This document shows positions 9,179 to 26,646 of a DNA stretch of 64,000 nt, in pieces. The notes below the pieces were generated by a model. That model did not search any database. It was not told where the DNA came from and saw only the letters and a list, made by a program, of their open reading frames with translations. Position numbers and translations under genes: made by a program. The stretch lies in the sequence record PZ338878.1; one strand, written 5' to 3'. Source of the DNA: a phage. Positions within the stretch are counted from its first letter, which is position 1; each line of letters opens with the position of its first letter.

Positions 9179-11338
9179 ATGAAACAGGCTATTTTTACTG
9201 TAACTCGAAATACGAGAGTAAATGCCAGTTCATTCAGCTATAAGACCGTCGATGGAACGGCGGTCGCTGGTAGAGATTATGTAGCTAAACAGGGAACAGT
9301 AACGTTCCCTTCTGATGCAGATTCTGCTACTGTGGTGGTTGATGTATATGAACGTCCGGCAAACTCTTTAGATCTTTATTTTACTCTTGAGATTACTAGC
9401 ATAAGTCAAAATAACATGATGATCAATGAAGAAATTCGTTGTGTTATTACGACTAATCAATCGAATACAACCCCGCTAACTTGGCCTGTTGTGAAGTCTA
9501 GAATGTTTGATCCTAAGTTTTGGACAATAGATTCTCAAGCAACAGAAAGTTGTTCTATTATCTCTAATGGTGATTCTTTCACAGCAAGAATGGTTAATAG
9601 GACAGTGGCTGGTCTTGCTGGGATTATTTGGTCAACTTACGATAAATATGATCACAAAGGATTAGGCTACCAAGAACATTCTGACTTAAGTAAAGAGAAA
9701 CTTTGGTTTAAAATGGAACTTAGTCAAGGTGTTCCTGGATTAAAAGAAGAAAAATTAATACCATCCTTAACAGTGACACTGAAGGATGAAACAGTTCATT
9801 ATGTATCTCTAAACTTTTATGCAGAAGAAGTTTCAGAAGATGGTAAGACAGCAACAATCAAATTAGATTTCTCAAACTTAAAATCGGGGCCAGAAAATGA
9901 TATTGTTGTTGACACTACACAAATAGATAATATGTTCTTCTCCTTGATCTCAACGAGGTATCAAGAAATTGAAGATATTATTCCTGTAGACAATGAGGAT
10001 CTTTCCTTTAAGTTTACCATACTGGAGCCTGATACTGGTTACAGTATGATGAATATGGGTAATTTAAATGTTCCAGCACACACCATAAGAATGTGTACAT
10101 CTTATGATGATATGTATAACCTGACCCCAGAGCGAATTATTTCTAACACCTACAGATTAGGTTATAGGGATATGATTAACCACTATAATGGTATGTCACA
10201 CTATTATCAGTTTAGTTGGGATGCTGGTTCTAATAAATGGGCTTTGAATAGAACAGAATATTTAAACCCAGCAACAGAAGCATGGTTTGATAATTTCCAC
10301 GCTAATGCAAAAGCTATGGGCTACACAGTAATGAATTCCTTAAGTTTTGAACTTATGAGTACAGTGTGTCCTGTAGAATGGGTACAACATACTTGGAATG
10401 ATGATCTTGCTGCTACAGGTTATGAGCCACCAAGTTATGTTTTATCTCCTTCAATTGATGAAGGGATGAATTATTTACAAGGTGTAATAAATAAAATAGC
10501 TTCTATATCCGCTGCTAATGATCTTCCGGTTATTATTCAGGTTGGTGAACCGTGGTGGTGGTATAACACAGCTACCAATCTACCGTGTATTTATGATTAT
10601 ACAACCAAAGTTGCATTTAATAATGAAACTGGATTGTATGCACAAGATGTTGGTACAGTTAAAAATTATAAAACTGGTACACCATATAATGAATATTATG
10701 CATTCCTATCTAAAACATTAGGACTGCGTGTTGCTAAATTTGCAACAGATACCAGATTAGCATATCCTGGAGCTAAAGTTACATTGTTACCATTTGTGCC
10801 ATCCATTTTGGGTAATGGTATGATGGAGTTTGTTAACTTCCCTAAAGATTATTATATCCCAGAGAACTTTGACTTTTATTGTTCAGAATGTTATGACTGG
10901 TTGTTGGAAGGTAAGATGGAAAAATCTTTCGACGCTATCACAATACCTAATGAGCAACTAGGTTTTAGTTACGATAAGATACATTATCTTGCAGGGTTTG
11001 TTCCAGACGCAACTCTAGCACCATTATATGGCTTTGATCCTGAATCAGACTACAGAACATATTTGTGGAAAATGATTATAGGTAATATTGTATTGAATGA
11101 TCAGAAGTTTGTTGGTTTATATCAATACATATGGGCTTACCCACAAATAATGCATGATTCAATAACTGTTCTTAATTCAAAATCCCAAGTGTTTTATATG
11201 GGTAATGTGCCTTTGAATTGCTACTTGCAAGATATCACTCTTAAACAGGTAAATGTTGAGATTGCCACTATAAGTGGAATTACATTAGCCACTAAATCTG
11301 GAGAAGATTTAGTAACAACACAAAAATTTTATATATAG
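9179..11338 (+). CDS. virion structural protein (baseplate/fibre-associated)
   Basis: 719 aa ORF tightly packed between structural genes. Confidence 0.45.
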   Translation: MKQAIFTVTRNTRVNASSFSYKTVDGTAVAGRDYVAKQGTVTFPSDADSATVVVDVYERPANSLDLYFTLEITSISQNNMMINEEIRCVITTNQSNTTPLTWPVVKSRMFDPKFWTIDSQATESCSIISNGDSFTARMVNRTVAGLAGIIWSTYDKYDHKGLGYQEHSDLSKEKLWFKMELSQGVPGLKEEKLIPSLTVTLKDETVHYVSLNFYAEEVSEDGKTATIKLDFSNLKSGPENDIVVDTTQIDNMFFSLISTRYQEIEDIIPVDNEDLSFKFTILEPDTGYSMMNMGNLNVPAHTIRMCTSYDDMYNLTPERIISNTYRLGYRDMINHYNGMSHYYQFSWDAGSNKWALNRTEYLNPATEAWFDNFHANAKAMGYTVMNSLSFELMSTVCPVEWVQHTWNDDLAATGYEPPSYVLSPSIDEGMNYLQGVINKIASISAANDLPVIIQVGEPWWWYNTATNLPCIYDYTTKVAFNNETGLYAQDVGTVKNYKTGTPYNEYYAFLSKTLGLRVAKFATDTRLAYPGAKVTLLPFVPSILGNGMMEFVNFPKDYYIPENFDFYCSECYDWLLEGKMEKSFDAITIPNEQLGFSYDKIHYLAGFVPDATLAPLYGFDPESDYRTYLWKMIIGNIVLNDQKFVGLYQYIWAYPQIMHDSITVLNSKSQVFYMGNVPLNCYLQDITLKQVNVEIATISGITLATKSGEDLVTTQKFYI

Positions 11339-11346
11339 GAGTAAAA

Positions 11347-13662
11347 ATGTCAACTACAATTACTAATTTACCCGAAACATCAAAAGTTAATGGTTCTGAT
11401 TACCTGGTTTTAGACCAACCTGATAAGACTGTTAAAAGCACAGTTTCCAACTTTCTTACTAACACTGGGGTGGTTGCTGCGGGGAGTTATACACCTAGAA
11501 CATTAGCCGATAGATTTGCTGATGTATTTAACGTTAAAGACTTTGGTGCAATTGGTGATGGAGTTACCGATGATACAGCAGCACTGCAAGCAGCAATAGG
11601 CGCAGCAGCAACTTCTGGTGTAAAACTGATATGGCCTGCTGGTACTTACTTGTTCACCAAACTTAGTAGCACTATTAGATATGGAGCATACAATTGGGAG
11701 GCAATAGGTCACGTAGAGCTTATCAGCACAGCTAACCCTGTCGGTGAAGCAGGTCAGGCTATACTACTAAGCGGAGCTTATAGTTCAGATCTGCTAAGTT
11801 TCGAGGAATATGATGTTAAGAAAGGTGATAGATCTATTACCTTAAATAAGGTACTTGATGCATCTACAAAAGACCTCATCGTGATTCGTAATAAGCACGT
11901 TGTACGAGGTGATCATCGTGGTAGCTGGCAAGAAGGTCAAATATCAGGTATTACAAAAGTAGAAGGAAATACCATTATGTTAGACCAGAATGCGCAGTAT
12001 TACTATAGGTCTGGTGGTAACTTCCATTTCACAGTTACTGGTGCGGAAAGTGGACGCAAGTTTTCTGCTGCTGAGTTTTCTGTTACCAACCCGCCACGTG
12101 ATGCATTATATCGTATCACAGGAACAACCGGTGTTAATGCTGGTATAACAAAGGTTGTAACAGCATATGATGATGCAACTAAGACCTTCACCATAGGTTC
12201 TGATGCAAACACAGGGTTCCCTAATACACCAGCAGTTGGTGATCAGTTCTTACTAGATAGGAAAGCAGAGGCTTGGTTGGTATACCCAGCAACTGTACAC
12301 ATTTCTGGTGACTTCGTACTTAAGACACAGCGTGGCCTTATTACAGATGCAGAAAAAGGTTCTCTCGCATGGGATGGACTTGTTCTAAGATATTGCCGTG
12401 ACAGCAAGATACAACTTGGTGGTGTACACAATTTCCCTAACTCAGGTGTTACAGTGAATATGTCATTGCGTGTTCATGTCAATGTAAGTAATATTACTGG
12501 GGCTAACAGGGTGTGGGATGGGTCAGGAGGCTCTGGTAATGCGGTATCCATTAACACCAGTAGCTTCTGCATAGTAGAAGGTCTGTCTTCGACAGGTTGC
12601 CGAAGGGGTGTAGATGTCACCGGTAGTAACTGGTCTAGTTTCTATAACATGATTAAAGACATCTCTGTGAGAGGGGGTGGCGTAGGTTTCACAGGTCAAT
12701 CTATCTTCCCACAGATAGGGTCTGCTGCTGATTGCTATGGAGTGGGCAGTCATGGCGGAGCTGTAGGTACAATGTATGATGGATGTGATTTAGTGGATTG
12801 CACTATACCATTTACCATACGTGGTTTTGATGAGAGTATTCAGAATAGTACAATTCGTGGGTATTGCTCTCAGCCAATTCGCCTGTATTACGCAAGCGGG
12901 TGCTACATTAACAATGTTACATACTCTGACGGTTTCACAGAAACTAAAGGGAGCACTAGCGAGTGGCAGACGATTACAACGACAGAGTACCGTAAGTTAC
13001 GACCAATTAGTTTCTTGACTATCACAGATACTTGGTCTTTTGAAACACCAACTGTAGTGGAGAATTGTGTTGCCAAATCTATTACTCGCTCTTTTGCTTA
13101 TGTAACAACAAAGGAAGAACAGCTAGATAACTTGGTACTTAAGGGTTGTATAGCTTATGTGGATAACTATGGCGCATCTACCACTGATGCAGCTTTCTTG
13201 CAAGTGATTGGTACTCCAGAGTTCCTAGGTAATATAGGTATGTTTGGTGGATGTGATCTTATTTTAGTTGGTTCAAACAACACAGTAAGCTCAAGTCAAA
13301 TGGTGAGAATTGCCTCCGCTTGTACTGGTATCATCCGCAGAAGTGAGACATTGTGGGAAGTAAGGATTAATTCAGGAGAGCAGAAGCGTGTGCCTCTTTC
13401 GAAAACATCTTCTATGCTTCTTGTAGATGTAGCTAACATGGGCAACCCAGGTAACTATAGTGCTTGCAATGTAATCATGGGTAAGGACGATGCAACCGAT
13501 TACTCGCCACTAAGCTCCTTCAACAAGAATAAGGTAGAGTTGCGAGATACTGGAGGGGCAACTGCCGGCACTCTTGCCTTATGGTTTTCTGGTAACAAGC
13601 TAGGAATAACTAATGGTTTCGGAGGAAAAGCTAATATACTTATAGATATTAGATCGTTCTAA
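11347..13662 (+). CDS. tailspike protein with pectate-lyase-like beta-helix domain (depolymerase 1)
   Basis: FGAIGDGVTDDTAALQAAI motif typical of pectate_lyase_3 / right-handed beta-helix tailspikes; fibre-type N-terminal motif. Confidence 0.7.
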   Translation: MSTTITNLPETSKVNGSDYLVLDQPDKTVKSTVSNFLTNTGVVAAGSYTPRTLADRFADVFNVKDFGAIGDGVTDDTAALQAAIGAAATSGVKLIWPAGTYLFTKLSSTIRYGAYNWEAIGHVELISTANPVGEAGQAILLSGAYSSDLLSFEEYDVKKGDRSITLNKVLDASTKDLIVIRNKHVVRGDHRGSWQEGQISGITKVEGNTIMLDQNAQYYYRSGGNFHFTVTGAESGRKFSAAEFSVTNPPRDALYRITGTTGVNAGITKVVTAYDDATKTFTIGSDANTGFPNTPAVGDQFLLDRKAEAWLVYPATVHISGDFVLKTQRGLITDAEKGSLAWDGLVLRYCRDSKIQLGGVHNFPNSGVTVNMSLRVHVNVSNITGANRVWDGSGGSGNAVSINTSSFCIVEGLSSTGCRRGVDVTGSNWSSFYNMIKDISVRGGGVGFTGQSIFPQIGSAADCYGVGSHGGAVGTMYDGCDLVDCTIPFTIRGFDESIQNSTIRGYCSQPIRLYYASGCYINNVTYSDGFTETKGSTSEWQTITTTEYRKLRPISFLTITDTWSFETPTVVENCVAKSITRSFAYVTTKEEQLDNLVLKGCIAYVDNYGASTTDAAFLQVIGTPEFLGNIGMFGGCDLILVGSNNTVSSSQMVRIASACTGIIRRSETLWEVRINSGEQKRVPLSKTSSMLLVDVANMGNPGNYSACNVIMGKDDATDYSPLSSFNKNKVELRDTGGATAGTLALWFSGNKLGITNGFGGKANILIDIRSF

Positions 13663-17874: not shown

Positions 17875-18216
17875 ATGGAGCTAACAGAAGTATGGGATAT
17901 CGCTAAAGAGGCGATTATCCCTCTTATTGGTGTAATCTGGGTGGTCTTCAAACAGAAGATAGATGATATAGCAAGTGATTTGGATAAAATGGAAGACAAA
18001 TACCGTGAACTAGAAAAGAAGTTGGTGTTTGTTGAATCCACTTATGCTACCAAAGCAGAACTTGCTCAAATGCTTAACCAGATCAACTCTACATTAATGG
18101 CAAATAATACTGCCTTAGAACAGAAGATTGAAAAAATAATGGATTTAAAAAATGCTCCTGTTCAATTAATGCTAGAGGAGATTACGAAGCGCACACAAAG
18201 TAAGGACAAAAATTAA
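17875..18216 (+). CDS. hypothetical coiled-coil protein
   Basis: 113 aa; N-terminal hydrophobic segment then charged helix; ATGA-type coupling to next gene. Confidence 0.4.
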   Translation: MELTEVWDIAKEAIIPLIGVIWVVFKQKIDDIASDLDKMEDKYRELEKKLVFVESTYATKAELAQMLNQINSTLMANNTALEQKIEKIMDLKNAPVQLMLEEITKRTQSKDKN

Positions 18217-20630
18217 TGGCGAATTTTCCAACATATCCTGCTACGACACTAGAACAAGGTGTTGATCTGGTTATATTCTCGTCTAACCAGATGCATGATG
18301 TTATTAACGGGGATGCTACAGCAACTGTAGAAACCGAAACAGGTTTAATACCTACACTGCGTAAAGCACTTGTTGATAACTTCTTCTTTAAGAGTCCTGT
18401 TGCTTGGTCAGCAGGATCAACTGAAACTGTATTTAACCAGTTACGTTATTTTGAAAACGGTATCTTGAGTGGGTACTACTATGCTCCATCTGCCACTACT
18501 GCGAACCCTGTACCTATGCAGGGTACACCTGTAGGAGACAGTAACTGGACTCTGTATGCTCTTAAAACTGAACAGTTAGCTTCAGATGTGTATCCTTGGT
18601 ATTTTAAAGGTGCTACAGGGTATGAGACAGAAATCAGTCCTCCTTATATCTTTGATAATGCTATTGTCACCATTAACGGTGTAATTCAGATTCAGGGTGA
18701 AGCATTTACTATCAAAGATAGTAAAATTATTCTGGCAGAACCATTAGGTTTAGATCCGTCTACTGGTCTACCTAACAAATTGTTTGCTTTTATTGGTAAA
18801 ACAACAGCCTCTACTTCTTACGTAGAGAAAAACCTTTTGTCATCTACCACTGGTGCAGCAATGGTTGGTCTTCCATCTGGAGGCAATCTGTTACAAGCTC
18901 AATACTTTGTAACGCCTGAGCAGTTTGGTGCAATTGGTGATGGAGTTACCGATGATACTCAAGCAATTCTAAAAACCATTACTTTCGCTAACACGAATAA
19001 CATTCAAGTACGTGCAGATAAGAATTATAGATTCACAAGCTCAATTGCTATGTCTGGTATTCGTTGGTATGGTGGTACATTCACTGGTAACGGTGGAACA
19101 ATGATTTCTACTGTGTCCTGTTGGATTGAAAACGTTCGCTTTGAAAAATGTTATGTTAAGATGTTAGGTGGTGATTGCCGATTCTATCGTAATATCTTCT
19201 CCAACGCAACATCTACAGCAGCATTTTTAATGCAAGCAATGACAAGTGAAGGTACGTTGGACTTCAGTTACAACGAAATGTATGGTTGTAAATATGCGAT
19301 CCTGCAACAAGGTACTGGAGAAGTAATGACCTATGGGCGTTACTCTAACAACTACATTCACGATATCAAAGGTGATGCTATTGAACTTAACGTAGTTCAA
19401 AAACACTACACTGAAGGTTTGATCATCGAGAATAACCACATTGCTAACGTAGATGCTTCTGGACAAGGGGCAAACTGGGGTATTGGTATTGGTGTAGCAG
19501 GTAGTGGCCCATATGGTGTTGATGCTCCTGATTCACAATATGTACGTAACTTCAGTATCGTTGGAAATAGGGTTTACAATTGCCGTCAATGTTTACACGT
19601 TGAAATGGGTAAAAACTTCACTATACGTGACAACGAAGTTTATCCTAACACAGCAGTTTCAACAGGTACAGGTTTAACTACTTGTGGTGTTGCATTATAC
19701 GGATGCCAAGATTTTGAAGTTGATGGTTTAACTGGTTATCTGCTTAATGATCCGTCTGTTTCAACACGCATGGTCTTTATTGACTGGGGTGTTAACAGTG
19801 GAAGATATGCGGGGCCACCAATTAACTTTACAATTAAGAATTTGGATATTCCAGAATCTTCAATTGAAATTGCAACGGCTGGATCAGATGCCTGGGAAAA
19901 CTCTACAATTGTTAGTAACATCAATTGTAATGTTTTTAAATGGCGTGGATTACCATCTAGCTCTACCTTTAATAATATTCGTTGCCGTAGTATTGACTTT
20001 ATTGGTCAACACGGAAGCGGAGAAGGAAGTGGTGGCGGTTTCTATACTCGCAGCCAATTCACTTATATGAAGTGGGTAGGATGTACAGCACTTAGCGGAG
20101 ATGAAACAACAGTTTCTTTTGCTAAAATCTACACGGATCGTTGCGATCAGGTTGGAAATAACTTTGGTGTTCCAACTGCTGTTGATGGTACAGGTCATCG
20201 TGGGCCAGTCTTAACCACTATTTCTGAACAATATTTTACAGATTATGATGAATTCCCAGGTGGGCGTGACTTCCCTACTGGAACAGTTATTCATTGTGCA
20301 AGCGGTAAAAAACACGTTGTTACAGTAGGTGGTGCTTTCTTTAGTAATAATGAGAAAATAAAAGCAACTGTTACAGGTCAAACCTATCTACAGTCTAATG
20401 CTTTAAACTGGGCTAGTAATGGCTACGCTAAAGCGGCAGGTACTAAGATTGTTATTCCAGGTGCAGGAGCAAATGGTGGCGATCTTGTGACAACTATAGC
20501 ACGTGCTACGTATGTGACAAATAGTTTGTACACAATAGATATTGCAGATCCAATTGTAACACCTACAGCAGAGAATACACAAATTAAAGCTCTGAACCCT
20601 GTTACTTTTGTTACTGTCAATAATGCTTAA
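18216..20630 (+). CDS. tailspike protein with pectate-lyase-like beta-helix domain (depolymerase 2)
   Basis: FGAIGDGVTDDTQAILKTI motif; 804 aa; distinct sequence from the 11347 tailspike outside the motif. Confidence 0.7.
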   Translation: MANFPTYPATTLEQGVDLVIFSSNQMHDVINGDATATVETETGLIPTLRKALVDNFFFKSPVAWSAGSTETVFNQLRYFENGILSGYYYAPSATTANPVPMQGTPVGDSNWTLYALKTEQLASDVYPWYFKGATGYETEISPPYIFDNAIVTINGVIQIQGEAFTIKDSKIILAEPLGLDPSTGLPNKLFAFIGKTTASTSYVEKNLLSSTTGAAMVGLPSGGNLLQAQYFVTPEQFGAIGDGVTDDTQAILKTITFANTNNIQVRADKNYRFTSSIAMSGIRWYGGTFTGNGGTMISTVSCWIENVRFEKCYVKMLGGDCRFYRNIFSNATSTAAFLMQAMTSEGTLDFSYNEMYGCKYAILQQGTGEVMTYGRYSNNYIHDIKGDAIELNVVQKHYTEGLIIENNHIANVDASGQGANWGIGIGVAGSGPYGVDAPDSQYVRNFSIVGNRVYNCRQCLHVEMGKNFTIRDNEVYPNTAVSTGTGLTTCGVALYGCQDFEVDGLTGYLLNDPSVSTRMVFIDWGVNSGRYAGPPINFTIKNLDIPESSIEIATAGSDAWENSTIVSNINCNVFKWRGLPSSSTFNNIRCRSIDFIGQHGSGEGSGGGFYTRSQFTYMKWVGCTALSGDETTVSFAKIYTDRCDQVGNNFGVPTAVDGTGHRGPVLTTISEQYFTDYDEFPGGRDFPTGTVIHCASGKKHVVTVGGAFFSNNEKIKATVTGQTYLQSNALNWASNGYAKAAGTKIVIPGAGANGGDLVTTIARATYVTNSLYTIDIADPIVTPTAENTQIKALNPVTFVTVNNA

Positions 20631-20670: not shown

Positions 20671-22632
20671 GTGATTTTAACACGTCCAAATAGTGCCATT
20701 GCAGACATGGTAGAGTCTCGCTATAGAAAGCGTAGAAGTTTTGCAAGTGGTTTTACCTTAAGAGATGCTCGTGAAGCATTGCTCTTTGAAGCTGACGGTA
20801 ACTACTATCAGTGGAAAGGTTCTCTACCTAAAGTTGTACCTGCTAACTCTACTCCTACATCTACTGGAGGGATTTCAGATACAGCTTGGAAAAATGTGGG
20901 TAATGCAGATGACATTGCTCAAATAGAATCAGAATTAGATGCTATTGAAGCTGAAATTGAAGATCTTAGAGAATCCATCCCAGAAGCTGGTAAATCAGCT
21001 TACCAGATTGCCGTAGACAATGGTTTCCAAGGTACTGAGACACAGTGGTTGGCTTCTTTAAAAGGTGATCCAGGTGCTCCATTAAAGCTATTAGGGACAC
21101 TATCTAATACCAACCAATTACCTACAAGTGGAAACAATGCAGGGGATGCATGGATTGTAGGCGAGAATATGTATGCTTGGGATGGTACTGCTTGGAGAAA
21201 AGTAAACTCACAGGGGCCAGAAGGTAAATCTGCTTATGAAGTATGGCTTGCAGCAGGAAATGAAGGTACAGAACTAGATTATCTTGCTTCAATTAAAGGT
21301 GATAAAGGGGAGCCTGGCCCAGAGGGGCCACAAGGTGTGCCAGGTAATAATGCTAATGGTTTTGATTACCAAGGCGCAGCTAATTCCGTTTCAGATCTTC
21401 CTTCTGCATCTCATGGAAACACATCTCAAGCATGGAGTGTTGGTACATATCTATACGTGTCAAACGGTGTAGAATGGATCAATATGGGTGCTATAGTGGG
21501 GCCAAAAGGAGATAAAGGCGACAAAGGTGATAAGGGTAACACTGGTGATTCAGCTTATCAAGTCTGGTTAAATGCTGGTAACGTTGGTACTATTGACGAA
21601 TATATTGCCTCTCTGAAAGGAGAAAAAGGTGATAAGGGAGACAAGGGTGATCAAGGTGCACAGGGTATACAAGGCTTGACGGGGCCAACTGGTGCAGGGT
21701 TGACCATTATTGACATTCTGACTAACACTTCTGAACTACCACAAACTGGAGAAGAGGGTGATGGTTATCTGATCAATAATGAACTTTGGGTCTGGTTGCA
21801 AGGAGCCACAGAGTGGACAAATGTTGGTCGTTTAGCTGGTACTCCAATCACTGCAAAAGGACACGTTGCGTCTGCAAGTGCACTTCCTCCTACAGCTAAT
21901 TACGGTGATGCTTATCTGACGGAAGATACAGGTCATCTTTACATTTACACCTATGATGAACAAACTCAAACTGCTGAATATGTAGATATGGGTAGTTTGA
22001 AAGGTGATAAGGGTGAAAAAGGTGACGCTGGTACTAACGGTACAGACGGTGCAACTTGGATTGTTAAAACAACAGATCCAATCTCTAGTGATGGTAAACA
22101 AGGTGATTATGCCTTTAATATCTCCACGGGCGAGGTGTTCTTAAAAACATCTGCAACTGTCTGGACTTCTCAAGGTACACTACCTAGTATCACAGATGCA
22201 CCTAGTGACGGTAAGACTTATGCTCGTAAAGATGGGGCATGGGAAGAACTCACTAATTCTGTAGATGGTCAAGATATAGTTCCAACAAAAGTAACAACTA
22301 ATTTTATAGAGGTTACAGCATATACCAACAATTCTGTTACAGGGGACTGGACACCTCCAGGAACACATAACATGAATGTGTTGAATCTTACTGGTAACGC
22401 TACTATAAAAGCATGGCCTGGTGTCGAAGATAGTACAAAACCTAAACCATTCTCTGCAATAGTTTATCTTATCCAAGATGCCACTGGAGGTCGTACTGTT
22501 ACTTTAGATCCATCTTACAAAGTAATTGGTTCCAGTGATATTAATACAGATCCTAACGGAGTAACAATACTACAACTAACATATTGTGGTGTTGGCGATT
22601 ACGTGGATGCTATTGTTGCTAAACGCACATAA
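20671..22632 (+). CDS. collagen-like tail fibre protein
   Basis: Gly-X-Y triplet runs (GPKGDKGDKGDKGNTGD; GEKGDKGDKGDQGAQGIQGLTGPTG) and a reiterated module SAY(Q/E)(I/V)W..AGN.GT..EY(L/I)AS(L/I)KG. Confidence 0.7.
   Translation: MILTRPNSAIADMVESRYRKRRSFASGFTLRDAREALLFEADGNYYQWKGSLPKVVPANSTPTSTGGISDTAWKNVGNADDIAQIESELDAIEAEIEDLRESIPEAGKSAYQIAVDNGFQGTETQWLASLKGDPGAPLKLLGTLSNTNQLPTSGNNAGDAWIVGENMYAWDGTAWRKVNSQGPEGKSAYEVWLAAGNEGTELDYLASIKGDKGEPGPEGPQGVPGNNANGFDYQGAANSVSDLPSASHGNTSQAWSVGTYLYVSNGVEWINMGAIVGPKGDKGDKGDKGNTGDSAYQVWLNAGNVGTIDEYIASLKGEKGDKGDKGDQGAQGIQGLTGPTGAGLTIIDILTNTSELPQTGEEGDGYLINNELWVWLQGATEWTNVGRLAGTPITAKGHVASASALPPTANYGDAYLTEDTGHLYIYTYDEQTQTAEYVDMGSLKGDKGEKGDAGTNGTDGATWIVKTTDPISSDGKQGDYAFNISTGEVFLKTSATVWTSQGTLPSITDAPSDGKTYARKDGAWEELTNSVDGQDIVPTKVTTNFIEVTAYTNNSVTGDWTPPGTHNMNVLNLTGNATIKAWPGVEDSTKPKPFSAIVYLIQDATGGRTVTLDPSYKVIGSSDINTDPNGVTILQLTYCGVGDYVDAIVAKRT
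21290..21700 (+). repeat. collagen-like G-X-Y coding repeat blocks
   Basis: Three blocks of GGN-GAT/AAA-AAR type triplet codons at about 21299-21346, 21498-21548 and 21617-21697. Confidence 0.7.
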
Positions 22633-22635
22633 TCA

Positions 22636-22660
22636 AAGCCCCTTCGGGGGCTTATTATTT
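22636..22660 (+). terminator. rho-independent terminator
   Basis: AAGCCCC-TTCG-GGGGCTT hairpin followed by ATTATTT. Confidence 0.6.
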
Positions 22661-22671
22661 AAGGAGATTAA

Positions 22672-25491
22672 ATGTATCCTATTCCTTTATTTATGTCAAC
22701 AACATCAGCTTCAGTAGTAACAGCTACATCTATAACCACTTCCTCTATTGGTATTGCAATAGTTGGTAGTAAAAAGCAACTGACATACACAGTTTCACCG
22801 GAAGATGGTGCGTTATTTGATATAGCTTTTTCATCTTCAGATAATACCAAAATGGTTATAGATAATAATGGTATGATGGAGTTTGTTGCCGAAGGTGGTT
22901 TTGATGCAATAATGACAGCTAAAAATAATTTAGGTGCTGTCTTAACTGATCAATCTGGTGGCTATGCTTCAGAATTAAGTGTGTACACTGAAAGTCTGTC
23001 TGCTATGGATGCAGGAACTACTCAACAATTGGTTGCTACAATCAGTCCAGAAGGTGCTAAAGACCTTCCAGACATGGTAATTACGTACACCACAACAGAT
23101 CCAGAAGTAGCTACTGTAAGTCCTACAGGATTAATAACTGCTCTTAAAGATGGCAGTTGCCGTATAGGTTGCACTGCAACTTATCAAGGAACAGTGGTGG
23201 CCTCTGATAGTTCTTATTTAGGTGTTAATGCTGTTCCTGTTATTTCTAATGTAACAGCCGTGGCAAACAGCTATGGAGACATTCGTGTTGCTTGGGATGT
23301 AGCTGATCCGCTAGATGGTGATACTTATACTGTAGAAGTATTAGATTTAAGTAATAACAGTGTCCAGTGGACTACAACAACCACGAATACTTACGCTTAC
23401 TTTGATATCTCTGACTCTATTCCTCTTTATGGGTTTGCTCCAACATACCTTAAAATTAGCGTTAAGAGCACCAAAGCAGCACCCGTTATCTTTAATAACT
23501 CAATAGCTACAGATGATTCATTCATTAAAGAAGTTATTGTCTTTGCTGGACAAGATAACGTAAATGCACACTTTACAGAACTATCTGGTGCAAATAAAGC
23601 AGCAATGAGTAGCACAACAGCCCGTAATGCATATGCTACGCAACGTGGTTTAGCAAATGCTGAAGTTCTCCCGTTAAATACAGCTTCTGGATCATCAGCA
23701 GCAGATAAATATGCTGACGATAAAGCTGGAACAGGTACACCAGACAACTACTGGTATGATCTGGATAACACAGCAGATGGGCCATGCTTAACTAACTTTA
23801 TCACTAAAGTCACACCTTATGCAAGTAAGGTTAAAGCGATTATTTGGGGACAAGGTGAAAATGATGCTGTATCAGCATCTTCAACTGTTGCAGGTAGATA
23901 CAGTAACACTACACGTTACCATGATGCTACGATAGCTATCTTTGATAAGATGCGTACAATAGTTCCTGCTTCTCAAGCAAAAATTGTTTGGCAGATCCTA
24001 GGACGTTCTTATTTATATGGTGTAGAAGTTAATGGTGTGGATTGGCAGAAATACAGAAATGTACAAAGAACCATCTCTACAGCACGTGACGATGTTATCA
24101 TTGGTTCTTGGGTGGATGGTGCTGAACGCTACAGTGGTTATGTTTATGAAGAAGGTATTGCTGGTCGTATCCATTATATTTCTTCTGTATACCAAACAGC
24201 AGCTACAAAACTTGCTAAATCAGCAGCAGACGGTACAGACCTAACATCAACGTCACCTGTTTGGGTTGATATGGCTGTTCCAACTGGAGCAACAGCTATT
24301 TCCCAATCTAATCAAGATATAATTTTAGCATGGGATGCTCAAGGTTATAGTAAACACTACTTCCGTAATATTAACGTCTTAACAGCATCTGTATTAACTG
24401 AACAAACCCTTAATACGAACAGTTATACGTTTACCTATGCAGATCAAGTAGAACAATATGGTTTTGCAGCAGGTACTACGGTATTTGATGTTGCATATTA
24501 TGACGAAGCAAATGATGTGTTATCTCCTTTAGTACGTTTTAATGTTAGCGTTACAGCAGGAAAAGTAGAAGATAAACCTGTCGTGATGGATTATGATTTG
24601 ACACAAGAAACTCTTCCATCAGATGTTAAGGTTAATGGTGGGAACTCTTTTGCTCGTGCTTCTGGAGATAAACTTGTAGCCACTAACACCTTGGTTGCTC
24701 CGTTGGAGTATGTTGGTACTACCCCTGTAGGTAGACGTGTAACAGCTAACACAGCTACACAAATTTTTGTCAACAACGCCTTAACAAGCGCAAGCCCGTG
24801 GGTAAAGACCAACTTAACTGTTGCAGCTTCATCTGATAACTCTCCGGCTGGAACTACTGCTAATGTATTCAAATTAACTCCGACTACAACCTCTGGTAGT
24901 CATATCTTAACTGCAACATATACTAACGCGTACAACATATCTGCCGGACGTAACTGGTCTGCCTCTGTTTTCTTGAAAGCGAACGGGATTACTAAGGCCA
25001 AACTAAGATTAAAAGCAGGAACTGAAGTTAATGAGGGTACTTTTGATTTAGCAGCAGGTACATTCGCAGGAAGTGAAGCTAATATTATATCTATGGGCAA
25101 CGGTTGGTATCGTGCTATTCTGCATAAAACAGGGATAGCCAAACAGTCCTCCATAAGTTTTGAAATAATTGCCTTGGATGCAACTGGTGCGGAGATTTTC
25201 GCTGGAGATGGTACTAGTAACCTTGCAGTTTGGTTGCCACAGCTTGAAGGTGCTTCTACAGGAGACACATCAAAAGCTGGATCGCCTTATGTCTGCACAT
25301 ATCCTGGAAATTTAGGAGGAGTATCCTTCACTATACCAAGGAACGGACATACTGGTGTGGATGTTTACTATTCCAACGGAGACGTTGTTCGTGACGTATT
25401 CTCTGGTACGGCATCTACTTGGACAATAAACTACTCCAGCTTGTACGATTGGGGATCAGTCTTTATTACAGGTTTGAAATATTACGACTAA
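22672..25491 (+). CDS. fibre/decoration protein with Ig-like region and SASA/SGNH-esterase-like domain
   Basis: 939 aa; central motifs VIVFAGQDNVNAHF and IWGQGENDA resemble sialate O-acetylesterase-type blocks; Thr/Ser-rich Ig-like N-terminal part; lectin-like C-terminus. Confidence 0.45.
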   Translation: MYPIPLFMSTTSASVVTATSITTSSIGIAIVGSKKQLTYTVSPEDGALFDIAFSSSDNTKMVIDNNGMMEFVAEGGFDAIMTAKNNLGAVLTDQSGGYASELSVYTESLSAMDAGTTQQLVATISPEGAKDLPDMVITYTTTDPEVATVSPTGLITALKDGSCRIGCTATYQGTVVASDSSYLGVNAVPVISNVTAVANSYGDIRVAWDVADPLDGDTYTVEVLDLSNNSVQWTTTTTNTYAYFDISDSIPLYGFAPTYLKISVKSTKAAPVIFNNSIATDDSFIKEVIVFAGQDNVNAHFTELSGANKAAMSSTTARNAYATQRGLANAEVLPLNTASGSSAADKYADDKAGTGTPDNYWYDLDNTADGPCLTNFITKVTPYASKVKAIIWGQGENDAVSASSTVAGRYSNTTRYHDATIAIFDKMRTIVPASQAKIVWQILGRSYLYGVEVNGVDWQKYRNVQRTISTARDDVIIGSWVDGAERYSGYVYEEGIAGRIHYISSVYQTAATKLAKSAADGTDLTSTSPVWVDMAVPTGATAISQSNQDIILAWDAQGYSKHYFRNINVLTASVLTEQTLNTNSYTFTYADQVEQYGFAAGTTVFDVAYYDEANDVLSPLVRFNVSVTAGKVEDKPVVMDYDLTQETLPSDVKVNGGNSFARASGDKLVATNTLVAPLEYVGTTPVGRRVTANTATQIFVNNALTSASPWVKTNLTVAASSDNSPAGTTANVFKLTPTTTSGSHILTATYTNAYNISAGRNWSASVFLKANGITKAKLRLKAGTEVNEGTFDLAAGTFAGSEANIISMGNGWYRAILHKTGIAKQSSISFEIIALDATGAEIFAGDGTSNLAVWLPQLEGASTGDTSKAGSPYVCTYPGNLGGVSFTIPRNGHTGVDVYYSNGDVVRDVFSGTASTWTINYSSLYDWGSVFITGLKYYD

Positions 25492-25492
25492 T

Positions 25493-25523
25493 AAAAAAGG
25501 AGCCATTAGGCTCCTTTTCTTTT
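25493..25523. terminator. bidirectional terminator at convergence of plus and minus modules
   Basis: A-tract, AAGGAGCC-ATTA-GGCTCCTT hairpin, T-tract; lies between the last plus-strand gene and the last minus-strand gene. Confidence 0.65.
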
Positions 25524-25526
25524 ATC

Positions 25527-25907
25527 TTAATCAGTGAAAATTACGCTCACATCTTCTTTAGAGAAGAGTTTATGATCTTCACCTTTTGTCTCAAGAGTTT
25601 CATACAGGTTAAGAAGTTCTGAAACATCTTTCTCTACCAGTTTCTTCAATGTTGCAATTTTCTGTTTGCGATTCTTAATACGTTCAGCTACAACCTTACG
25701 TTGGTATCCAGCAGTACGATAACCTGAGAAAGTTACACCAGTAAGACTTGCAGTTACAGGATCGTAGTGACGTTCAATCTGAAATTTATTAAAAGGTACA
25801 GCGTCATCACGAATAATCTTACCGCCATTACTTACTTGACGAAGACCAGTAACTTGTTCCAGTCGTGCCATAGAAATCTTTGGAGACAGACCAGAGTCCA
25901 AATTCAT
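25527..25907 (-). CDS. hypothetical protein
   Basis: ORF-track 25527-25958; probable start at internal Met (MNLDSG...) to avoid overlap with the methyltransferase gene. Confidence 0.45.
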   Translation of the reverse strand: MNLDSGLSPKISMARLEQVTGLRQVSNGGKIIRDDAVPFNKFQIERHYDPVTASLTGVTFSGYRTAGYQRKVVAERIKNRKQKIATLKKLVEKDVSELLNLYETLETKGEDHKLFSKEDVSVIFTD

Positions 25908-25914
25908 ACCGTTG

Positions 25915-26646
25915 TTAATCAGTGCTTTCAGGGTGATTTTGCTGTTCAGTGTACTCATTTAGTCGTTCCTCCGCTTGCTTAAAAATATTTACATCGGCTT
26001 CACAGCCTAAGTATTCTCTACCTGTTAAAAGTGCCGCAACTTGTGTTGTTGCACTTCCAGAGAAGAAGTCTAAGACTACATCTCCTTCGTTGGTATGTAT
26101 ATTAATAAGGTCACAAAACAAAGTCAAGTGTTTTTGTGTTGGATGAAAACGATCTGCTCCTTGATAGATAGGATACTCAAACACACCCTTATGGTAGGAA
26201 GCATTGAAGGTTGGCTTCGAACCTTTAACACAAACAATAGCCATCTCTTTAGCGTTACTAAGGTAGTTAACACCACTGTTGATGGGTACAGGGTTTGTTT
26301 TAATCCATTCAATAGTACGGAACATACGAAAACCAAGCGGTTCAAGGATTTCACGTAGTTCCTGGATCTTCCAGATATCATACCAAACTATGCAAGTACC
26401 ACCTTTTCTAAGCACCCTATAGGCTTCTTTGAATACTTCTTTAAAGTAAGGAATATCTACAACATCCCAGTCACCAAAGTTGTAAGATACACGGAATCTA
26501 TCCGTATCTTTTCCAGTAGGTTCTCCAGATTGAAAATTTGTGTCACGAGAAATAGCATATGGTGGGTCAGTAAGAATCAAATCTACACTATTGCTTTCGA
26601 GGGTTTGCAGGTAGTTTAATGCGGTGTTGTTTACAAATTCGCTCAT
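25915..26646 (-). CDS. DNA methyltransferase (beta-class, N6-adenine or N4-cytosine)
   Basis: N-terminal DPPY motif (LILTDPPYAI) and C-terminal AdoMet motif (VVLDFFSGSATT); no adjacent restriction endonuclease recognised. Confidence 0.75.
   Translation of the reverse strand: MSEFVNNTALNYLQTLESNSVDLILTDPPYAISRDTNFQSGEPTGKDTDRFRVSYNFGDWDVVDIPYFKEVFKEAYRVLRKGGTCIVWYDIWKIQELREILEPLGFRMFRTIEWIKTNPVPINSGVNYLSNAKEMAIVCVKGSKPTFNASYHKGVFEYPIYQGADRFHPTQKHLTLFCDLINIHTNEGDVVLDFFSGSATTQVAALLTGREYLGCEADVNIFKQAEERLNEYTEQQNHPESTD

Follow-up and report, generated by a model that had tools for sequence, protein, structure and literature searches.

The DNA analysed here, 64,000 nucleotides (nt) of sequence record PZ338878.1 (hereafter the window), comes from a phi92-like Escherichia coli myophage of the genus Justusliebigvirus. 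The subject of this analysis is the tail protein gene at 22672-25491, which corresponds to phi92 gp152 and gp153 taken together. An esterase-fold domain in its product carries an aspartate (Asp295) at the position where the catalytic serine is expected and, judging from the comparisons below, is probably a selected, non-catalytic, glycan-binding pseudo-esterase. Both full-length similarity and conserved gene position place the gene with the gp152/gp153 type of Justusliebigvirus. Its nucleotide identity to the 'tail protein' gene of Escherichia phage SD2 is 99.1%; 27 phage records cover at least 80% of it, and in 19 phage genomes it is 97-99% identical over the full length. The open reading frame (ORF) matches PHROG 32204 (E = 0) and PHROG 11922, both 'tail protein'. 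GenBank labels vary: 'hypothetical', 'tail protein', 'tail carbohydrate esterase', 'non-contractile tail sheath' and 'lateral tail fiber protein with intimin and glycosidase domains'. The gene, the domains of its product and the active-site blocks (numbered in amino acids, aa) are:

22672-25491, plus strand: tail protein gene (from the ORF list), 939 aa plus stop
22759-23235, plus strand: two immunoglobulin (Ig)-like Big_2 domains, about aa 30-188 (Pfam Big_2, E = 7e-14, two stretches)
23236-23511, plus strand: beta-sandwich 1, aa 189-280 (all-beta in the full-length AlphaFold2 model; predicted local distance difference test score, pLDDT, about 76-87)
23512-24276, plus strand: SGNH/SASA-fold esterase-like domain, aa 281-535 (AlphaFold2, Foldseek, BFVD)
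23548-23559, plus strand: block I, GQDN, aa 293-296; the codon of Asp295 (GAT, 23554-23556) is the nucleophile position
23683-23697, plus strand: block II, ASGSS, aa 338-342, with oxyanion-hole Gly340 (lines up with G(G/S)S in homologues)
23848-23865, plus strand: block III, GQGEND, aa 393-398, the SASA 'QGExD' block (spanned by the Pfam SASA match)
24172-24174, plus strand: block V, His501 within RIHY (His in 64 of 77 homologues)
24277-24561, plus strand: beta-sandwich 2, aa 536-630 (full-length AlphaFold2 model, pLDDT about 79-92)
24562-25488, plus strand: exchangeable C-terminal beta-rich module, aa 631-939 (NCBIfam GTA head-spike-fibre match)

The layout is a string of Ig-like and beta-sandwich domains flanking the esterase-fold domain. 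The full-length model is confident for aa 190-630 only, the Big_2 and C-terminal parts having pLDDT below 50, and neither this model nor the domain scans revealed a coiled-coil or beta-helix fibre segment in the 939-aa protein. A reading made earlier from the letters of this DNA and its ORFs (the sequence-only reading) had called the product a fibre protein; it is a tail protein, while the word fibre is loose, no fibrous segment having been detected. The short N-terminus that precedes the Big_2 domains is conserved in an Avunavirus lineage, represented here by the Av-05 type (MYPIP.F), and PHROG 15324, an N4-type sheath/receptor-binding protein family, matches aa 452-632. The GTA head-spike-fibre domain was found at aa 694-863 (E = 1e-18), and aa 631-939 form a probable carbohydrate-binding (lectin-like) tip. 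Homologues of this module occur at 63% identity in other E. coli phages of 145-155 kilobases (kb) and at about 27% in small siphophages; the RcapMu tail fibre also matches. The Av-05-type protein has no such module and stops directly after beta-sandwich 2. The synonymous substitution rate (dS) between the window and phage EmilieFrey is 1.46 in the C-terminal module, against about 0.08 before the breakpoint, and relative to phi92 it rises from about 0.08 to about 1.0 in beta-sandwich 2. These jumps past the esterase-fold domain point to module swapping, indicating that the recombination breakpoints lie just beyond that domain, with the downstream modules swapped and the core conserved.

The family to which the esterase-like domain belongs was assessed by sequence and by predicted structure. 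A word-indexed homologue search with the domain returned two near-identical fragments only, and conservation was judged from an exhaustive HMMER search (query aa 272-535; 1.84 billion representatives), which yielded 78 relatives. The AlphaFold2 model of aa 272-535, computed from the query and an alignment of 28 relatives, has a mean pLDDT of 94.9. When compared with PDB entries using Foldseek, this model ranked the phage N4 sheath protein gp65 first (E = 1e-13, template-modelling score 0.78), followed by the SASA structures 1ZMB (5e-07) and 2APJ (2e-06) and then by CE2, GDSL and PatB-type SGNH structures. There were 64 PDB matches at E <= 0.001, and the top ones are nearly all SGNH/SASA/CE2 esterases or related acyltransferases. 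Among the viral models of BFVD, the domain resembles SGNH tailspikes, with phages Possum, ViI and Vi06 among their sources. Scanned by itself, the query scored 14.2 bits (whole protein) or 17.0 bits (domain alone) with Pfam SASA (PF03629), below the gathering cut-off of 24.8 bits, and the alignment spans the block III region only. However, 20 of the 29 aligned homologues match Pfam SASA at E <= 0.01, and separate scans of six distant members gave 29-49 bits, which exceeds the cut-off; since the homologues pass, the homology of the query to SASA is established transitively. Searching the PDB with the single sequence gave an Ig-domain match only (the Big_2 part with the Ig region of the carbohydrate-binding protein 6n1a), and a distant homologue used as query gave nothing useful; these searches being uninformative, a family profile was needed. 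The profile (alignment A1, N4-like members included) retrieved 9lc0_I by hmmsearch in two copies with E = 3e-85, and its GQSN aligned to the GQSNMAG of both 1ZMB and 2APJ. At the level of the predicted model, aa 281-535 are thus confirmed as an SGNH/SASA fold, as the sequence-only reading had supposed from a few motifs.

Those motifs were read where they had been placed: GQDN lies within VIVFAGQDNVNAHF (aa 288-301; 23533-23574), and IWGQGENDA occupies aa 391-399 (23842-23868). His501 of block V is an additional block that had not been listed. In a MAFFT alignment of 77 homologues, GQSN, G.S, QGExD and His are collinear, and the Asp295 column holds Ser in 66 of the 75 homologues that have a residue there, nearly always in the context G-Q-S-N. 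The claim that the expected catalytic Ser has been replaced by Asp is therefore borne out. No other Ser of the query aligned to the nucleophile column, and none of the alignments puts a canonical Ser nucleophile elsewhere. In the AlphaFold2 model Asp295 is the first residue of a helix, right after the first strand (287-293), and this strand-to-helix junction is, in the model, the canonical location of the SGNH nucleophile. The oxyanion-hole residues Gly340 (block II) and Asn397 (block III) are retained, and Gly395, Glu396 and Asp398 of block III are invariant among close relatives. The position three residues before the His, an Asp in the DxxH of SGNH enzymes, is Gly here; all members of the phage-tail subclade share this Gly, even those that have Ser. 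At residue 497 (codon 24160-24162), four positions before His501, Ala is confined to the window and phage SD2. The remaining Justusliebigvirus sequences that were read (EmilieFrey, phi92, P0001, P0003 and P0083) have Asp there, and in these it is the sole nearby candidate for a catalytic acid. In the 34-aa peptide around this residue, the 54 other matching Justusliebigvirus-type records differ from the window.

Of 55 Justusliebigvirus records, 40 have exactly the window's 34-aa peptide around GQDN and 15 depart from it by one residue; in the two variant peptides that were read, the difference lies outside GQDN. The Av-05 type, whose 647-aa protein is 47% identical, reads GGDN, as do all 13 members of its 90% cluster. 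Asp therefore occupies the nucleophile site in every Justusliebigvirus and Av-05-type sequence read there. In the Av-05 lineage ASGSS is replaced by TFIAS, so that the Gly of block II has become Ile, and the Asn of block III has become Gln. A neighbour-joining tree joins the two Asp lineages as sisters, with a sister group that carries GQSN (P0007 and P0008) and GQAN (P0006); a single replacement in a common ancestor is thus the simplest history. The codon of Asp295 is GAT in every sequence read, so synonymous variation at this site is uninformative on selection; a change from Ser to Asp requires at least two nucleotide changes. Across the family Ser was lost independently several times, its place being taken by Asp, Ala, Met, Glu, Leu, Val or Thr. 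Of 73 homologues, Ser and His occur together in 60 and are both absent from 7; Ser stands alone in 4 and His alone in 2 (Fisher P = 6.5e-6, shared ancestry being ignored).

Substitution ratios were also compared between domains. The ratio of non-synonymous to synonymous substitution rates (dN/dS) of the esterase-fold domain is 0.04 relative to EmilieFrey, the lowest among the five domains compared, and 0.05 relative to phi92 (12 synonymous and 2 non-synonymous changes). By these counts, the domain is under strong purifying selection and is not a decaying relic.

The phi92 reference (NC_023693.1) differs from the window in that its annotation divides the gene into two ORFs, gp152 and gp153. The phi92 locus (L004, 15321-16983) corresponds to window 22672-24530. 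Compared with the window, it has a 218-nt deletion (window gene nt 591-808) that removes most of beta-sandwich 1, a 1-nt deletion and a frame-breaking 2-nt insertion near codon 333; the GQDN region falls within the unannotated gap between gp152 and gp153. The split reflects a sequencing error, or else the gene is a true pseudogene in phi92.

A second gene of the window bears on the function of the domain:

9179-11338, plus strand: phi92 gp142 homologue, 719 aa, with Calx-beta, NCTSP_N and TIM-barrel_NCTSP (Pfam, E = 2e-81)

Its product matches N4 gp64 (E = 3e-27) and gp65 in the PDB, and by sequence it corresponds to gp64 plus the N-terminal part of the sheath protein gp65. Neither NCTSP_N nor TIM-barrel_NCTSP was found by the Pfam scan in ORF 22672-25491; both are in ORF 9179-11338. 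In 14 of the 78 representatives, a region homologous to ORF 9179-11338 is in the same polypeptide as the esterase-fold domain, and these include the nearest relatives P0006 and P0008 (51% identical; phmmer E = 1e-106 and 1e-118). Since the domain is fused to a gp142-type module in relatives, an N4 gp65-like receptor-binding protein appears to have been split here into two genes about 11 kb apart. Such a Rosetta-stone relation suggests that the esterase-fold domain acts on, or beside, the glycan recognized by gp142. The motif GMSHY has been described as a signature of N4 glycan receptor (NGR) binding in Vequintavirus, Justusliebigvirus and N4, phi92 gp142 being named among its carriers (preprint 10.64898/2026.04.02.716166), and the gp142-type TIM-barrel protein is the proposed NGR binder. 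Infection of K-12 by Justusliebigvirus depends on wecB and nfrB, i.e. on NGR (PMC8669472; PMC11990801). In the window GMSHY is found in ORF 9179-11338, at nt 10190. ORF 22672-25491 was accordingly rejected as the published NGR binder; likewise, the 'glycan deacetylase lateral tail fibre' of Maffei 2021/Sellner 2021, to which recognition of enterobacterial common antigen (ECA)/NGR has been attributed, was first assumed to be the 22672-25491 product and this identification was then rejected.

The state of the active site in gp65-like proteins varies between hosts. The proteins of Achromobacter phage AXY1 and Delftia phage RG-2014 keep Ser and His (GINSL...WIHYT), these residues are replaced by Gln and Tyr in the E. 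coli N4 type (N4-like vB_Eco_SPSP) and by Leu and Glu in Pseudomonas phage PspYZU01, and Ser is lost in all E. coli phage members (N4, phi92 and Av-05 types). The Achromobacter nfrA/nfrB/wecB receptor-glycan cluster has been reported with O-acetyltransferase homologues (PMC8669472). Retention of Ser and His may track O-acetylation of the NGR-like glycan of the host and, more speculatively, the E. coli glycan would need no deacetylation.

N4 gp65 (PDB 9LC0, 9YF4, 9YF5 and 9YFT), which likewise belongs to the virion tail of a phage of E. coli, is the best match in both structure and sequence. It has SGNH-like domains at aa 433-604 and 713-1007, and these esterase-fold domains are themselves degenerate. 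Ser and His have given way to Gln and Tyr in domain 2, and domain 1 has GESQ and is missing the last third of the fold. The two proteins nevertheless differ in several respects. The gp65 chain includes NCTSP_N and a partial TIM barrel, which the window phage encodes in the separate gene at 9179-11338; gp65 and gp64 together build the six-fold sheath of a podovirus, whereas the window phage is a myovirus; the window protein has Big_2 domains and a lectin-like C-terminus, with identity of about 20%; and it retains His and blocks II and III, with Asp instead of Gln at the nucleophile site. The SASA/CE6-type acetylesterases (PF03629; 1ZMB, 2APJ; human and bacterial sialate O-acetylesterases) are alike in fold and motif order, but the window domain has Asp for Ser, has no Asp corresponding to that of DxxH and sits within a virion protein. 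The SGNH esterase tailspikes of phages (G7C gp63.1, the Vi-phage spikes and that of Pectobacterium phage Possum) likewise carry an SGNH domain on the adsorption organelle, and spikes of these types are reported to be active O-antigen or capsule deacetylases in passages of PMC8594841 and PMC9569702 that cite the work. They are remote fold relatives (10-15% identity) and mostly trimeric, in contrast to the beads-on-a-string window protein, which has no catalytic Ser. In CE2 esterases (PDB 2W9X, 2WAB and 2WAO) the SGNH active-site cleft doubles as a non-catalytic glycan-binding site. This likeness is at fold level only (E about 1e-5), and the CE2 proteins are cellular enzymes that retain the Ser-His dyad.

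The sequence-only reading had offered three explanations for the Asp: an inactivated esterase fold retained for glycan binding, an alternative nucleophile, or a wrong family. The last of these, in which the motifs are chance look-alikes, there is no SGNH/SASA domain, or the true Ser nucleophile lies elsewhere, could appeal to the sub-threshold SASA score of the query alone. It is, however, contradicted by the high-confidence SGNH model and its PDB matches, the SASA scores of the homologues, the collinear blocks and the profile alignment to the GQSNMAG of 1ZMB and 2APJ, and we regard it as scarcely credible. A protein that is still an enzyme, in which Asp295, His501 and the oxyanion hole hydrolyse a bond, with Asp as nucleophile or water activator, deserves more attention, although it too seems improbable. 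Such an enzyme might act on an O-acetyl ester or on some other linkage of a host polysaccharide. In hydrolases of other folds, for example the alpha/beta hydrolases, aspartate can serve as the nucleophile. Every Justusliebigvirus sequence examined has blocks II and III and His501 intact, Asp and His both persist across lineages just 47% identical, a replacement needing at least two nucleotide changes implies an intermediate followed by fixation, and purifying selection on the domain is very strong. But we know of no SGNH/SASA enzyme with an Asp nucleophile, and a literature search on SGNH pseudoenzymes and inactive phage esterases found neither an SGNH protein with Asp for Ser nor a report on this protein. 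Moreover, the Av-05 sister lineage has lost the oxyanion-hole Gly of block II and the Asn of block III, residue 497, the only nearby candidate acid, is Ala in the window, and family members that have lost Ser generally have no His either. The Av-05 changes in particular are hard to reconcile with an Asp that works through the old oxyanion hole. The specific proposal that Asp295 and His501 form a working catalytic pair, an SGNH variant undescribed for the superfamily that modifies an enterobacterial glycan such as the NGR, is a shade more doubtful again; if it held, phi92-like and Avunavirus phages would modify a conserved glycan, possibly at another acyl linkage or at a glycosidic one.

A purely structural spacer or assembly module that binds no ligand, recognition being left to the aa 631-939 tip and to other fibres and spikes, is unlikely, though it has a better claim than a surviving enzyme. 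Related phages have exchanged the C-terminal module, as would be expected of a specificity determinant, the fully degenerate gp65 domain of N4 belongs to the sheath scaffold round the tail tube (PMC13434306), and the gene is interrupted in the phi92 record. On the other side, Av-05-type proteins that have no tip still have the esterase-fold domain with its Asp and His, and no other domain of the protein has so low a dN/dS. The former active-site residues (GQ.N, GQGEND and His) are conserved in Justusliebigvirus, but with two amino-acid differences domain-wide such motif conservation cannot by itself separate constraint on the pocket from constraint on the fold.

Of the options in the sequence-only reading, the inactivated fold retained for glycan binding is therefore the one we favour. 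Loss of esterase activity is favoured by the recurrent loss of Ser and its link to loss of His, by the Asp-bearing Av-05 lineage that has neither the block II Gly nor the block III Asn, by domain 2 of gp65, the closest solved structure, from which Ser and His are both missing, and by the Ala at residue 497 in the window and SD2; the strong purifying selection favours retention for binding. The preserved function would then be something other than esterase chemistry, for which ligand binding in the former active-site pocket is the simplest candidate. We infer the loss of esterase activity, the binding of a glycan and the identity of that glycan from comparisons of this kind. Several observations pull the other way. 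Everything except Ser is intact in the lineage (Gly340, GQGEND and His501), which would fit a working Asp site; the co-loss statistic takes no account of kinship; the published NGR-binding determinant sits in gp142 and not in the 22672-25491 product; and in the phi92 record the gene is broken by deletion and frameshift, so that, if this disruption is real, the protein is dispensable at least for phi92.

For the pseudo-esterase that we favour, the following history can be proposed. The gene product would be a modular adhesin associated with the tail or baseplate of a phi92-like myophage, ordered from N- to C-terminus as anchor, two Ig-like domains, beta-sandwich, SGNH/SASA domain, beta-sandwich and exchangeable lectin-like tip. 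Its esterase-fold domain would descend from active O-acetyl-esterase domains of the 'non-contractile tail sheath' receptor-binding proteins (N4 gp65 family), in which it presumably adjoined a glycan-binding TIM barrel. The exchange of Ser for Asp would have taken place in an ancestor common to the Justusliebigvirus and Avunavirus lineages, and strong purifying selection would then have kept the domain for its pocket, non-catalytic from then on, in which a polysaccharide of the host surface would be bound and not deacetylated. The likeliest ligand would be the NGR, as for the gp142 TIM-barrel protein, or another acetylated sugar polymer.

The fold assignment was already present in databases and the structure of N4 gp65 is published (PMC13434306). 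Our literature search found no report of the Asp at the nucleophile site, of recurrent Ser loss in this family or of the domain and gp142 as fission products of a gp65-like protein. What is new here is accordingly the Asp, the recurrent loss and the two-gene split; the likely outcome is a pseudo-esterase and not a new system, and reuse of inactive enzyme folds as binders is a familiar theme. The database label 'tail carbohydrate esterase' is probably wrong on function and, because Ser is missing in two phage genera while the domain is conserved, predictions or engineering that assume a 'deacetylase' are likely to be wrong. Phages of the phi92 type are valued because they infect a very wide range of hosts, and they are candidates for use in therapy and for the engineering of host range; the finding addresses the question of which of their many fibres and spikes act as enzymes and which simply bind. 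The pairing of the domain with the gp142 TIM barrel provides a testable hypothesis for a second component of NGR recognition. The family also offers a natural series from receptor-binding enzyme to lectin, with members that keep Ser, members that have lost Ser with the pocket intact and members in which everything is lost.

Some database records with matches to the protein carry unexpected host names. Four 'Campylobacter phage' records, A150, A145, C3 and A110a (MG065639, MG065645, MG065656 and MG065689), match the esterase-fold region at about 99%; they are unannotated, 146-kb sequences and look like mislabelled or contaminant Justusliebigvirus. The 34-aa motif peptide is matched at 97% in Serratia phage OK210077, and Acinetobacter phage OP562383 matches the C-terminal module only, at 63%.

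The gene is the final one of the tail-fibre block and the last structural gene. Upstream lie a colanidase-type spike gene (18216-20630) and then a collagen-like fibre gene (20671-22632), and the three are ordered like phi92 gp150, gp151 and gp152/gp153. The gene is bordered by two signals:

22661-22666, plus strand: ribosome-binding site AAGGAG, read from the sequence, with the ATG 5 nt downstream
25495-25518, plus strand: hairpin terminator, a 10-bp stem followed by a T-run, at the convergent junction with opposite-strand genes

Phages Paula and PATM have an annotated terminator at the place equivalent to 25495-25518. Between the collagen-like fibre gene and ORF 22672-25491 there is a further, GC-rich hairpin, AAGCCCCTTCGGGGGCTT, at 22636-22653, downstream of which the sequence is just weakly T-rich (ATTATTTAAG); it may act within the late operon, either in partial termination or in stabilizing the RNA. 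Elsewhere in the window, the slot of the phi92 endosialidase gp143 is occupied by a spike gene (11347-13662, plus strand) whose 771-aa product matches only in its pectate-lyase-like/endosialidase N-terminus, so that the depolymerase at this slot apparently differs between the window phage and phi92. On the minus strand, a DNA methyltransferase gene and the small ORF downstream of it (25527-25958 and 25915-26646) share 44 nt, and the same overlap is found in phi92 gp155/gp154.

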